Sequence record: MZ956761.1 | DNA: 64,000 nucleotides | From: a phage | Strand: one strand, 5' to 3' | Part shown: positions 56,409 to 61,901 of the stretch, piece after piece | Position numbering within the stretch: position 1 is the stretch's first letter | Layout: each line of letters starts with the position of its first letter | Position numbers and translations under genes: made by a program | Notes under the pieces: model-generated | What the model was told of the DNA's origin: nothing | The model's input: only the letters and a program-made list of their open reading frames with translations | Databases searched by the model: none

Positions 56409-57065
56409 TTATTTAGCCCTTCCTAATATTCTGGCCGCCTGAGCACATATTGATTCAAGGCGGTCATTACTTATATGATCATTTCTATACCAGTACATGG
56501 TTATCGTTCCAGCATAGATATTATCCAAATTAAAATATGGACAACTGTACATGTAGTTTATTTCGGGAGTAGGCTTTTTAGTTGGTAAAAAAGCAAATTT
56601 TGAGTCAGAATAATAATGACGTCCATTTAAATGAACTGTATATTCATCCATAGTTTTATCAACAGGATATCCTCCAAGTGATTTTTCAGTTATTGTTGAA
56701 GGTAATCTTCCTTCGTATGCTATAATATCAACAAAATAGTTTAAGTTTTTAGGGCGGAAAGAATACACCGCACTAAAGTCTGCCTCAGATGATATATGAA
56801 CTATCTGGAGTTGTTCCAGGGCGACAGATTCAAAGCGTGCATTTCTTTCCTTTTCAATAATTTCACTGTATGTTTCATACTTTGATTGCTTATAGTACTC
56901 AAAGAAACTATCTCCCCTATACCAAACAATCGCCATCATAAATAAAAGAATTACGACAGCTACCCGGGAAGCAAGAACATTCCCGGTAGCGTTATCTTTG
57001 AACAAGCGATCTAGAACACCAAACAGAATATCAGAGGGCGAAAATGATATTCTAGGTGCTGCCAT
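56409..57065 (-). CDS. t: holin T
   Basis: 218 aa; N-terminal TM segment then large periplasmic domain; follows gene 38 on the - strand. Confidence 0.85.
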   Translation of the reverse strand: MAAPRISFSPSDILFGVLDRLFKDNATGNVLASRVAVVILLFMMAIVWYRGDSFFEYYKQSKYETYSEIIEKERNARFESVALEQLQIVHISSEADFSAVYSFRPKNLNYFVDIIAYEGRLPSTITEKSLGGYPVDKTMDEYTVHLNGRHYYSDSKFAFLPTKKPTPEINYMYSCPYFNLDNIYAGTITMYWYRNDHISNDRLESICAQAARILGRAK

Positions 57066-57095
57066 AGACCCTCCTTTTAAGGATATTTATTCAAA

Positions 57096-57887
57096 TTATA
57101 CTCTTGCACCATATATTGTACCAACTTTAGTCCAAGTTGGAGCATTACCAGTAACAGCTTTACCTGCTGCGCCACCCGAGTGAACAGTTCCTCCAGTACC
57201 ACCTTGAATATATGAAGATTTGCCCGCAGCCCCCAAATCTCCACCATCTCCTCCATGGTGAACCCCAGAAACAGTACCTTTACCAGGAGCAGAAATTGTA
57301 GCGGCAGATGCTGCCGCTGCGCCGCCGCCTGCTGCACCCGCTGCACCAAATGGACGACCTCCGCCGCCACCAAATATCATATCCATCTGGGGGAAAGGAT
57401 GATATCTAGCACCAGCGCCACCACCACCTCCACCACCGATAATACCATTATTGTTTATTCTTAAACGAGTTCCAATTCCGTTATTTATTGCAGTTCCTCC
57501 TGCTCCACCAGCAGAGTTACTTCCGCCATTTCCTCCTCGACCCAATACATGAACACCACTATTAATATTTAAGGTAACATATGCATTAGTTAATGAGCTA
57601 GGAAAATCTAAGCATGGTTGACCTGTCGATGAAGAAACGATATTGCCTGTAATAGTAATAACAACAGGAGTACTTCCTTGGGCTTTTATCCAATTTATTA
57701 GTGTGTCTTTATTATAAGAATTGCTAGCACCAATGCTGTAATATACTTCTTTAGATTGTCCGGCCATTGAGCTCATCCAACCAGGAACTGAAACACGAAC
57801 TGCTCTCATCGCAGCATCCATCCAGCGTTGTCCAGTTTCATTCACGGCAGATTCACCAATCCAGCCAGGAACACCTACAATTGCCAT
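57096..57887 (-). CDS. 38: tail-fibre adhesin gp38 (T2-type, glycine-rich motifs)
   Basis: 263 aa; poly-Gly/Ala blocks (GGGGGGGAGA, GGGGRPFGAAGAAGGGAAA) separated by variable segments. Confidence 0.8.
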   Translation of the reverse strand: MAIVGVPGWIGESAVNETGQRWMDAAMRAVRVSVPGWMSSMAGQSKEVYYSIGASNSYNKDTLINWIKAQGSTPVVITITGNIVSSSTGQPCLDFPSSLTNAYVTLNINSGVHVLGRGGNGGSNSAGGAGGTAINNGIGTRLRINNNGIIGGGGGGGAGARYHPFPQMDMIFGGGGGRPFGAAGAAGGGAAAASAATISAPGKGTVSGVHHGGDGGDLGAAGKSSYIQGGTGGTVHSGGAAGKAVTGNAPTWTKVGTIYGARV

Positions 57888-57898
57888 TAAAAATCCTT

Positions 57899-57916
57899 AG
57901 AGGGCCGAAGCCCTCT
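57899..57916 (-). promoter_or_regulatory. UUCG-loop hairpin between genes 37 and 38
   Basis: On - strand AGAGGGC-TTCG-GCCCTCT directly before the gp38 RBS; no U tract. Confidence 0.45.
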
Positions 57917-57917
57917 T

Positions 57918-60900
57918 TTACATAAGTTTAGATTCGAGTTCTTTTACACGAGAAGAAAGTGTTTTCACAGCTTCAACCAGAAGAGCAATCTGGGCTTGAG
58001 AAGAAACAGTGAGTATTTTATTACCCTTGCTATCTTCTGTTTCATGGACGGCTTCTGGTAAAACGTCTTGCAACGTTTGAGCTATAATACCCGCTTCGGT
58101 TTGAACAGGTTCACCGCCTATATATTCAGCTTTGTCATAGATTAAACCATCAAGTTGCTCAACCCTTTCGAGCGCATTTTTAATAGGTTTAAAATTAGAT
58201 TTCAAGCGAACATCAGAACGAATATAAACGTTAGGAGCATTGACGTTTTTCTCGGAATAAACTTCACTTGAGGTGAATCTAACAACTTTAACGTTGTTCG
58301 CCCACGCTTCTAAAAGCCCATCGCCTACTTGTCTAAAACCAGTATCACTATCACCAATTGCAATGGAGTTACCACCCCAACCGTTGGAGGTATTTACACC
58401 AAATGCTCTCGCAGATCCGCATGATAGTATAGGAGCATAAAATGTTCCGTCCATATCAAAAGTCCAACGAGCCTGTTGCCCCGATGGGTTGTCGCCACGC
58501 ATGCGAATAATACCTTGACGCCAAGTACCAGAAACACCTAACCATCCAAATTCAAATGATTGACGATAGCCCGCGTCAGTTAAAAAACTGTATCCAGAAA
58601 ATAGCGGGTAATAAGCTTGACTTGTCTTGGAAATGCCACCCGTATTCGCTAAGAATGCAGAATTGTCGCGAGTCACATCTGAAATAGCAGAAAAGCTAAC
58701 ACTCCATTGTCCGGCAGCTTTAACTCGTGAATTAATGTTTCCATTAATAGTAATATCTTTATCAAAAGAAGTATTTTCGCCAAGACGAACAGTACCAGCA
58801 GTCATATCGATTGAAAACGGTCGTTTTCCATTCCAATCGCCTTCAGTTGCTTTATTATCGCCGTCTGAAGAGTTTTTGTCAGTCAGTAAAATATAGAAGT
58901 TTCCACCGTCATTTCGAAATAAAACGGAATTAGAACCTGATCTATCAGAATTACTCGTAATACGAATACCGGTTTGGTTATTAATAGCAATTTCCGACTC
59001 TGCTACATAACGCTTAGAACCATTAGGCGTTTTTTGCAAGTTGTTAAGAACACTAGCAACCTGTCCTTGAATAGCCGTCTCAGGAAGTTCAACCGCAGTT
59101 TCTGTTGCACCCGGTTGGTCCGTTGCAAATACCTGGTTAATGGTAGCATTAGGAGTAGCATAATAAGAAACTGCTAGCGCTTGAGCATAAGTACCAACGT
59201 TTACATAGATGTCATAAACATCGCCTGATGTATTAACCGTTGCAACATTCTTAATACCCTGATCGGTATCCATCGACCAAACAACAGCGTTAATACCTTT
59301 CGGGTTATTGTTCGAAGTTCTTAAAACAATTTTCGAAGTAACGCATTGGTGTGGGGTGTTGACATTATAGCCATTACCACCAGCAATTTCGAATGTGACG
59401 GTTGAAGTGGATTGTGGCATTGTCACCGTTGCTAATTTGTACCAACCGCCAGTACCTGAATAAGAAACCATTCGGGTATTGACTTTACGATCTAATGTCG
59501 AGTTCAAGTTAGCAAAGTTAGGTAATGAACCACCCGTGATATTACCATCAGTACCAATACGAACATTACCAGCACCTAATTTACCAGGAGAGTAAAAATC
59601 ACCATTTTTATTAAATTCCCAACCTAAATCCTTTATAATTGCGCCAGTAGAACCGCCATCGCCACCTTCGTGATAATGAACTCTAAAGTTACCACCATTA
59701 ATTAAAGTACCAATAGAATAGCAACTATTATTTTGAACGTATCTTTGTTTCACAATAGGAACATAAGTGCTTGTATCGGTTCTATCTATATTCATGTAGA
59801 ACGGAGCACGAACGTTTTCATTATTTTGTGAAGCAAATGAACCTGCACCGGCTGGGCGAACAGCATCAGTACATTCTGCATCAATGTATGCCGACTGACC
59901 TATCTGCATACGGTAATTAGGAGAAATACGACTATGACTAGTAACAACAACAAGTTTGTTATCATTGTCTACAGTAATCATATTGCCGCCTCTGCCATCA
60001 TCGCCTAATGTGACAGAATGACGCATGGTGACTTTACCATCACTTAATGCAATATAGAACGGGCGTAAATTAGAAATACCACCTGATTCACCAACATTCT
60101 GTGGAGTTGGAATAATATAAAGCTTATCTTCAGAACGTCGGAAAATAGCACCGTATTCAGCATTCCAAATTCTTAATGCATCAGCCGTTCCACCAAATTT
60201 AGCTTGTCCGTTTACAGATAATCCATTATTAACATTTAAAGAAGATTCAGTTGTAATAGAACCAGAAGCAACAATACTACCTGAAGTTAATAAACCACCA
60301 TTAACTCGAAATTGAATAGGTCCGACAGTAGAACCTGATCCGGGAGCAACTCGCTGAGAATAAAAATGGTAACCTTGCCCATCTGATACTTCAAAAACTG
60401 TTTCACGGGAACGATCTCCAGATGTGTTAAATGAATTACCCCACGCTTTAACAGTTACATAGCTTTTATTCTGCCCAGCACGCTTACCACCTTCCCACAA
60501 AATTTGCTTAGTGCCGTCAATTGTAGTAGTTGGAGCGAATGTTAGCCCAGCAGTAGAATTATTAGCTGCTAAATATATGCCGTTATATATTGAAAGCTGC
60601 TTAACAGATGTAATACCGCCATCAGCATAAAACATTACATTATTAGAGCCAGTTACTAGTTTAAGAATACCAGGGTTAACTTCCATGCCTTCTTGGGTAT
60701 TAATATTAGTTTTGCCTTTACCACGGAAATAGTGGTTCATTTTTCCGCCTGAGTTATAGCCAATATGTGTCTGACCGTCTCCAGCAGTGTTTTCATCAGC
60801 TTGTGTTTGAACTGATAAAAATGCAGCGTTCGTTCCAGGCATAATCCATGTTGTACCTTGGTCTTCTGAGCGTCCAAATATTGCTTTGCGAGTACTACGG

Positions 60901-61901
60901 AAACTATCAGGTGTAATAGATGCCAAAGATAAACCAGAACCAACAAAATCAAATACGCCGGTTTTTCTATAAACTAGACCAGTTCCATTATCACCTAAAG
61001 CAAGAAATATATTTCCTAGTGCCCCAACATTTCCATAATCGCTTGACGGAAACCCTTGCGTCACAGTACCAATGGCCAAGCTATTGCGAATAATCATTCT
61101 ACCGTCGTTACGAATACCATATAGTTTAAATAACGGTATATTACCAGTCCACCAAGAAACTTCATCAGCCAGGCCTGTTTGGGCAGTAACAATTTCATGA
61201 TAAATTGTACCACCGGACTTAGCGCGAACTTTACGAAGATAGTTTACGCCATTTGTTTCACCGGTTCCAGGATAAACATAGTTAACCAAAGATTGTGAAT
61301 CGTATTGTCCAAATGATTTAGAATCATGATTAATTAAATTAACACTAATAGTTGGTGTACTAATAGAAGTTAAAGCAGTTAATTTGCGTGCCTGGAAGAT
61401 ACCACCATCGGTAGAAATGAAATGAAATTCTGAATTTTGAGCTCCCGCAGCGGTTCCTTGACGAACACGCATTGTAATTACGCCTTCATTTTCAGACTGC
61501 GGTTTTGAATATAAAACGCCACGTTCTGAGCCATTTGTATTTTCAAACCAAAGATGGGCATTTGCAGTATCGTTTGTTGCTCTTGCATAAAATGAACCCT
61601 GTGTAGATCTGAAAACTTTTGCAGTTACGCCATCAGTAGAACCAATAGGTCCATTTATAGTCATTCCACCTGTTTGTACATAATCGCCGTTTAACCTCAA
61701 AAGACCATTGATAGTTACATTTCCATCAATTTGACCGCCTTTAGCAATACCTAGATCAATGATATTTCCTGAATCATCTTTAGTAAAAATTGTTCTATCT
61801 TTTAAGTTTATAGCCAATTCACCTTCGGCTAATACTGAAGCAGCAGGACGTGCACCTGCGGTTTTGCTTCTTTTAAATTGTATTTGTTTTAAAGTAGCCA
61901 T
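57918..61901 (-). CDS. 37: long tail fibre distal subunit gp37
   Basis: 1327 aa, Gly/Ser/Thr/Asn-rich fibre; C-terminal chaperone-like domain. Confidence 0.9.

Follow-up and report, generated by a model that had tools for sequence, protein, structure and literature searches.

Intramolecular chaperone domains located at the C-terminus of phage proteins and removed by autoproteolysis have been described in several systems, and those of S16, T5, K1F and phi29 have been grouped together on this basis (PMC7289586). In T5 pb1, cleavage takes place between Thr1263 and Ser1264 and is blocked by a Ser1264Ala substitution, Ser1264 being activated by Lys1269 (PMC4690869). An arginine from a neighbouring chain ties the cleavage of pb1 to correct folding of the trimer, and upstream residues, namely an Arg from a neighbouring chain and an Asp, complete the active site of the folded trimer in both K1F and T5; the T5 chaperone was furthermore shown to contain a central trimeric coiled coil, and a pb1 mutant that still bears the chaperone no longer competes to inhibit infection, whereas processed pb1 does (PMC4690869).

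Among phages with T-even-like tail fibres, the last 113 residues of S16 gp37 are described by Salem et al. (PMC7917993) as an intramolecular chaperone which is autocleaved between two serines (DLNVS^SDRRIKK) after trimerisation, thereby exposing the docking surface for gp38. For gp37 of the Yersinia phages fPS-2, -65 and -90, autocleavage at DVYIR^SDGRLKI, exposing the gp38 docking tip, was predicted in silico (Salem et al. 2021, PMC7917993), and the same autocleavage inference has been made for another T4-like phage (PMC8309999). The gp37 proteins of T2 and T6 are stated to undergo proteolytic cleavage at the C-terminus, after which gp38 caps the fibre (PMC3157838, citing Drexler, Riede & Henning 1986, J Mol Biol 191:267). 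The tryptophans of gp38 enter three pockets that are related by symmetry and lie at the gp37 trimer's base (PMC6851490), their role in docking being described in PMC7917993 as well, and C-terminal subtypes of gp37 reportedly co-vary with N-terminal subtypes of gp38 (Trojet et al., PMC3157838, citing Drexler, Riede & Henning 1986).

The window analysed in the current study is a stretch of phage DNA of 64,000 nucleotides (64 kb), in which the 5-kb region around the gp37 C-terminus exhibited 100% identity with Escherichia phage ADUt (OQ466432), a Tequatrovirus from hospital wastewater in Turkey. The gene order on the minus strand, i.e. gp35, gp36, gp37, gp38 and holin t, corresponds to that of the standard T-even long-tail-fibre locus (Table 1). 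In the GenBank record of ADUt, gp37 is labelled 'tail fiber' and gp38 'tail assembly protein', names which hide the adhesin and processing arrangement outlined below.

Table 1. Features of the gp37-gp38 region, with positions in the 64,000-nucleotide window
Feature	Position	Strand	Basis
Gene 38, T2-type adhesin, 263 aa	57096..57887	-	Pfam GP38 (E 1.3e-68), Gp38_N (E 8.2e-18)
gp38 N-terminal attachment domain, aa 1-42, with Trp9, Trp22 and Trp37	57762-57887	-	Alignment with S16 gp38
Gene 37, long tail fibre distal subunit precursor, 1327 aa, 142.4 kDa	57918..61901	-	ORF list; OQ466432 match
Gene 37 stop codon	57918-57920	-	ORF list
Heptad-like C-terminal segment, aa 1300-1327, 28 residues, presumed trimeric coiled-coil helix	57921..58004	-	Sequence; aligned with the S16 and MYRF C-terminal helix region
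C-terminal intramolecular chaperone domain, aa 1229-1327 (Ser1229-Met1327), 99 aa, 10.9 kDa, release predicted to follow trimerisation	57921..58217	-	PF13884, PDB, T2 and PHROG matches
Conserved core GIIAQTLQ, aa 1271-1278 (family consensus G-x-I-A-Q ... L-P-E-A-V)	58068..58091	-	Sequence; invariant columns
Motif S1229-D-V-R-L-K1234, predicted catalytic Ser...Lys pair (Lys = Ser+5; Ser-x4-Lys)	58200..58217	-	Sequence; invariant Ser, Asp and Lys
Predicted scissile bond Arg1228/Ser1229, codons CGT TCT	58215..58220	-	Aligned with the S16, fPS, GA-1 and T5 sites
Predicted mature gp37, aa 1-1228, 131.5 kDa, ending ...NAPNVYIR	58218..61901	-	6F45_A alignment reaching upstream of the predicted cleavage site; NVYIR / DVYIR / DLNVS strand alignment

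A preliminary description of this DNA, made from the sequence alone, had assigned a chaperone-like domain of approximately 105 residues to the C-terminus of gp37. Such a domain was indeed found, with a length of 99 rather than 105 residues, and it occupies the extreme C-terminus of the protein (aa 1229-1327 of 1327), as expected for S74-type fibre and spike proteins. The homology to S74-type (chaperone-of-endosialidase) domains that had been put forward was borne out by profile searches: Pfam model PF13884 (Peptidase_S74, 'chaperone of endosialidase') matched aa 1229-1286 (58044-58217) across the full model (positions 1-58 of 58; E 1.6e-13), with scores of 51.1 bits for the whole of gp37 and 55.6 bits for its 160-aa C-terminal fragment, compared with a curated cut-off of 22 bits. 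T2 gp37 itself also scored against PF13884 (aa 1243-1300), and NCBIfam holds no model for either gp37 or the chaperone domain.

Searches against solved structures matched the last 160 residues of gp37 to chain 6F45_A of S16 gp37 (E 3.3e-10; query residues 8-158). This alignment begins approximately 55 residues upstream of Ser1229, so that homology to S16 extends over the mature tip as well as the terminal domain, and the last ~55 residues of the predicted mature gp37 correspond to the part of the S16 tip at which gp38 docks. A profile built from homologous domains reached further PDB members, namely the MYRF domain 7DC3 (E 1.5e-12), a tail fibre, 8JOV (E 5e-13), and 3GUD, the chaperone of the GA-1 neck appendage. 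The deposited chain 3GUD_A, which represents the released chaperone, starts with the aligned Ser (SDERHK...), as would be expected if the bond N-terminal to this Ser is cut. The K1F endosialidase (3GW6) and T5 pb1 (4UW8) structures were not recovered from the PDB by this small homologue profile, even at E<=10; a relationship of the gp37 domain to these founding members is suggested by the Pfam model together with the literature.

Furthermore, a 104-aa C-terminal segment of gp37 matched 34 PHROG fibre families at their extreme C-terminus, and the homologous segment was present in 1791 of 50,697 phage records, the match covering at least 80% of the query in 1715 of the 1791. The C-terminal domain of gp37 is a common, modular fibre-terminal domain.

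The sequence YIRSDVRLK, from which the original suggestion of an autocleavage site had been derived, occurs once in gp37 (aa 1226-1234). It is located at 58200-58226 on the minus strand, i.e. 3 nt, or one codon, away from the approximate position first given for it (58203-58229), and it is followed downstream by GIIAQTLQ, as had been noted. For comparative analysis, the C-terminal sequences of the fibre proteins of ADUt, T2, slur13, Lw1, Sf21, PYPS2T, AR1, S16, a Vibrio schizoT4 phage, a T5-like Salmonella phage and the Thermus phage phiYS40 were aligned. Ser1229, Asp1230 and Lys1234 were invariant in both diverse alignments (n=11 and n=10 sequences), and the invariant columns of the core segment comprised G, A and Q (G-x-x-A-Q) as well as L, P and V (L-P-x-x-V). 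The domain opens with the Ser, and the Lys lies five residues downstream of it, Ser1229 and Lys1234 of gp37 corresponding to Ser1264 and Lys1269 of T5.

Taken by itself, the motif is weak evidence, since translation of the 64-kb window in six frames yielded two occurrences of the bare pattern S-D-x-R-x-K, and SDVRLK might on that account be viewed as a chance resemblance in a protein with no S74 homology. This explanation is practically untenable, being refuted by the full-model PF13884 match, the alignment to 6F45_A, the agreement of the further profile, PDB and PHROG matches, and the abundance of the segment among phage records. The homologue profile, when compared with the six-frame translation of the window, produced exactly one match (E 2.4e-43); as the window's own sequence is included in that profile, this match is indicative of uniqueness only.

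A terminal coiled coil had also been proposed for gp37. The last 28 residues are heptad-like, in agreement with that proposal, and the helix itself (aa 1302-1326) was seen in a single-sequence AlphaFold2 model at low confidence (pLDDT only ~50-56), the model of aa 1178-1327 as a whole being too poor for a fold search (mean pLDDT 43, pTM 0.31). The heptad-like end, together with the alignment to solved members, fits a mixed alpha/beta module that carries a C-terminal trimeric coiled-coil helix.

The gene located immediately downstream of gp37 encodes a gp38 protein that matched S16 gp38 (6F45_D; E 3.4e-47), with Trp9, Trp22 and Trp37 all aligned, and whose residues 1-46 were almost identical to those of T2 gp38. 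The locus thus displays the arrangement of a T2/S16-type tip, in which an adhesin-type gp38 with three tryptophans is encoded directly downstream of a gp37 whose tip is homologous to that of S16.

Membership of the S74 family, the catalytic residues, the terminal position, the closeness to T2 and the T2-type gp38 downstream are features observed at this locus. The cleavage, its site and the exposure of a docking surface are taken from the literature on homologues, and on this combined basis aa 1229-1327 of gp37 very probably constitute an S74-family self-removing chaperone, the self-cleavage of which would yield the gp38-docking tip. We infer that gp37 of ADUt behaves in the same manner and that its cleavage precedes the binding of gp38, an order of events that follows published descriptions of the S16 structure. 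The preliminary description had likewise proposed that self-cleavage generates the fibre tip before gp38 binds; this proposal coincides with the published S16/fPS model and is supported, by analogy, by a domain that is identical to that of T2 at 86 of 99 positions.

By analogy with these homologues, three copies of gp37 would join through the C-terminal helices of their chaperone domains, and the chaperone domain would nucleate, or set the register for, folding of the trimeric beta-helical gp37 tip. Once the tip is folded, Ser1229, activated by Lys1234, would attack the peptide bond between Arg1228 and Ser1229. Dissociation of the 10.9-kDa domain would then leave a mature gp37 of 131.5 kDa ending in ...NVYIR, and the exposed trimeric end would serve as a platform for a single gp38, which would dock through its N-terminal helical bundle with Trp9, Trp22 and Trp37. 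The docked gp38 adhesin would, in turn, supply receptor specificity.

Two variations on this scheme concern the cleavage step. A genuine S74-type chaperone might be cut in trans, by a protease of the phage or of the host: the source on T2 and T6 speaks simply of gp37 as 'proteolytically cleaved', with no mechanism specified (PMC3157838), and Ser-Lys self-cleavage of gp37 is a prediction. Trans-cleavage is nevertheless considered very improbable, as the Ser and the Lys at +5 are invariant across very distant phages, the Ser1264Ala substitution in T5 pb1 blocks cleavage of the protein when it is produced in E. coli in the absence of further phage proteins (PMC4690869), and the cleavage in S16 is described as autocleavage (PMC7917993, PMC7289586).

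Alternatively, the domain might be kept uncleaved in the mature fibre, either to cap it structurally or to provide the binding site for gp38. Cleavage of gp37 in ADUt is a prediction, the only paper on this phage containing no virion proteomics and making no mention of the tail fibre, and the domain is part of at least one fibre chain (8JOV, 439 aa), as judged from the deposited sequence. Retention of the domain is, however, highly improbable in view of the intact catalytic residues, the reported cleavage of the T2 homologue, whose domain is 87% identical (PMC3157838), and the docking of S16 gp38 on an end that is made by cleavage (PMC7917993, PMC6851490). Self-removal of the chaperone followed by docking of gp38 is thus the preferred interpretation.

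The arrangement described here is already known, being that of the textbook T2-type long tail fibre, with experimental evidence from T2 and S16 and in silico evidence from several other T4-like phages, and its recognition in the present gp37 advances no open question. Its significance is confined to annotation and engineering, as the predicted end of the mature fibre protein is Arg1228 and not Met1327. In designs of chimeric fibres or gp38 swaps, the gp37 tip and its chaperone domain should therefore not be separated from each other or from the gp38 N-terminal subtype that matches them.

When compared with known systems, the gp37 analysed here is distinct from that of T4. T4 gp37, which was included as a negative control, gave no match to PF13884 and contains Collar and Phage_fiber domains instead, a pattern opposite to that of the gp37 of the window. 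T4 gp37 is folded with the aid of separate chaperones, a non-structural gp38 and gp57A, whereas the gp38 of the current locus is of the adhesin type. Assignment to the T4-type gp37 class was ruled out by the presence of the S74 domain and by a gp38 that is not of the assembly-chaperone type. C-terminal processing of gp37 is absent from the text of a review of the T4 tail (PMC3004832).

The K1F (3GW6), T5 pb1 (4UW8) and GA-1/phi29 (3GUD) domains of the MEROPS/Pfam Peptidase_S74 family share with the gp37 domain an extreme C-terminal position on a trimeric fibre or spike, the Ser...Lys (+5) pair, the G-x-I-A-Q core and a terminal helix. The mature proteins that they serve (e.g. an endosialidase or the bullet-shaped T5 tip), however, are unrelated, and the T5 domain is larger, with 133 aa and long beta-hairpin 'tentacles' as compared with the 99 aa of the gp37 domain. 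Furthermore, what cleavage exposes in those systems is the very protein that binds the receptor or acts as an enzyme, whereas cleavage of gp37 would expose a docking site for gp38. The eukaryotic MYRF domain (7DC3) shows detectable kinship, sharing the D-x-R-x-K motif and the G-x-I-A-Q-E...L-P-E-A-V core; it frees a transcription factor from its membrane anchor and has no role in fibre assembly.

The resemblance to S16 (PDB 6F45; Dunne et al. 2018) encompasses a homologous gp37 tip and terminal domain, a Ser that aligns with the reported cleavage site, and a homologous gp38. The two domains are nevertheless divergent, the available S16 fragment being identical at just 24 of 99 positions. At 113 aa, as opposed to 99 aa here, the domain of S16 is further extended at its C-terminus and contains an insertion of 3 residues, and the S16 tip carries an insertion of approximately 17 residues upstream of the cleavage site relative to the gp37 of the window. 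The fPS junction, DVYIR^SDGRLK, is almost identical to NVYIR^SDVRLK of the present gp37, yet Sf21 and PYPS2T, which were sampled as phages with an fPS-type junction, possess a 113-aa domain that is identical at only 42-43 of 99 positions and represents a different domain allele. The allele shared by T2, ADUt and slur13 consists of 99 aa and is devoid of the amphipathic C-terminal extension of 11-15 residues that is seen in the S16, AR1, Sf21, Vibrio-phage and T5-like domains. An effect of this minimal 99-aa allele on trimerisation or dissociation, or a further function of the 10.9-kDa trimer once it has been released, is speculative and highly doubtful.

The closest of the compared systems is T2, the gp37 of which displays 60% identity end to end with the gp37 of the window (1341 aa and 1327 aa, respectively), the middle and distal shaft segments being mosaic between the two. 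Over the last 170 aa, which include the tip, identity amounts to approximately 60-76%. Processing of gp37 has been reported for T2, while here it is predicted from sequence; the junction of the two proteins can be written as NVYIR/SD(V/I) and reads NVYIR/SDVRLKS in the present gp37. The terminal domain has a length of 99 aa in both proteins and differs by 13 substitutions, and in both phages the next gene encodes a T2-type gp38 adhesin with a nearly identical attachment domain.

The C-terminus of gp37, the distal subunit of the long tail fibre of phage ADUt, was compared with those of other phage fibres. In T2, ADUt and slur13, the Peptidase_S74 chaperone domain was found to be 99 aa long and to end directly after ...KELESKLM, without the extension of 11-15 residues (e.g. 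ELKK-IVKSLL) that is present in the S16, AR1, Sf21, Vibrio phage and T5-like domains. In Pseudotevenvirus phages, an S74 chaperone domain forms the C-terminus of the protein annotated as 'gp36 small distal tail fiber subunit', as observed for Escherichia phage Lw1 (KC801932, 168842-169189) and also for RB16 and RB43. The Lw1 domain is identical to that of ADUt at 58 of 99 residues, whereas the sampled Tequatrovirus alleles (Sf21 and PYPS2T) reach only 42-43 of 99, and the Lw1, RB16 and RB43 genomes each contain two matching places. This suggests that the S74 domain is swapped among different fibre genes and genera.

Outside the window, chain 1 of PDB 8JOV, a solved assembly of 18 chains, is a 439-aa 'putative tail fiber protein'. 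Its deposited sequence still includes a C-terminal S74-type domain (E 5e-13), which would be uncleaved if it also appears in the atomic model.

Features of the gp37-gp38 region in the window
Feature	Position	Strand	Details
gp37 C-terminal end	57921-57960		compared with aligned records L002, L004, L005 and L010
Hairpin	57899-57916	minus	AGAGGGC-UUCG-GCCCUCU; 7-bp GC-rich stem, C(UUCG)G tetraloop
Alternative-frame ORF	57077-57373	-	
Alternative-frame ORF	57255-57464	+	
Alternative-frame ORF	56998-57183	+	
Pfam Gp34_trimer (PF21446) matches, gp37 shaft	60050-60427		aa 492-617; two stretches, E 4.4e-13

A hairpin lies in the short gap that separates the stop codon of gp37 (57918-57920) from the start of gp38 (57887), and it is followed by a Shine-Dalgarno sequence (AAGGA) and a T-run. 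With a free energy of -13.4 kcal/mol (z -2.1 compared with shuffles), this hairpin was flagged as terminator-like, and it may represent an mRNA-stabilising or attenuating element. Three ORFs in alternative frames, 61-98 aa long, overlap gene 38 in its glycine-rich region as well as the beginning of the holin gene; they do not look like genes but like artefacts of the repetitive Gly codons with their high GC content.

In GenBank record OQ466432, gp38 (57096-57887) is labelled 'tail assembly protein' and gp37 (57918-61901) merely 'tail fiber'. Its Pfam and PDB matches show gp38 to be a receptor-binding adhesin of the T2/S16 type and not an assembly chaperone of the T4 type.

The gp37 shaft also matches Gp34_trimer, the domain through which the proximal fibre subunit trimerises. 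Such matches were likewise obtained for the gp37 proteins of T2 and T4, consistent with modules common to gp34 and gp37.
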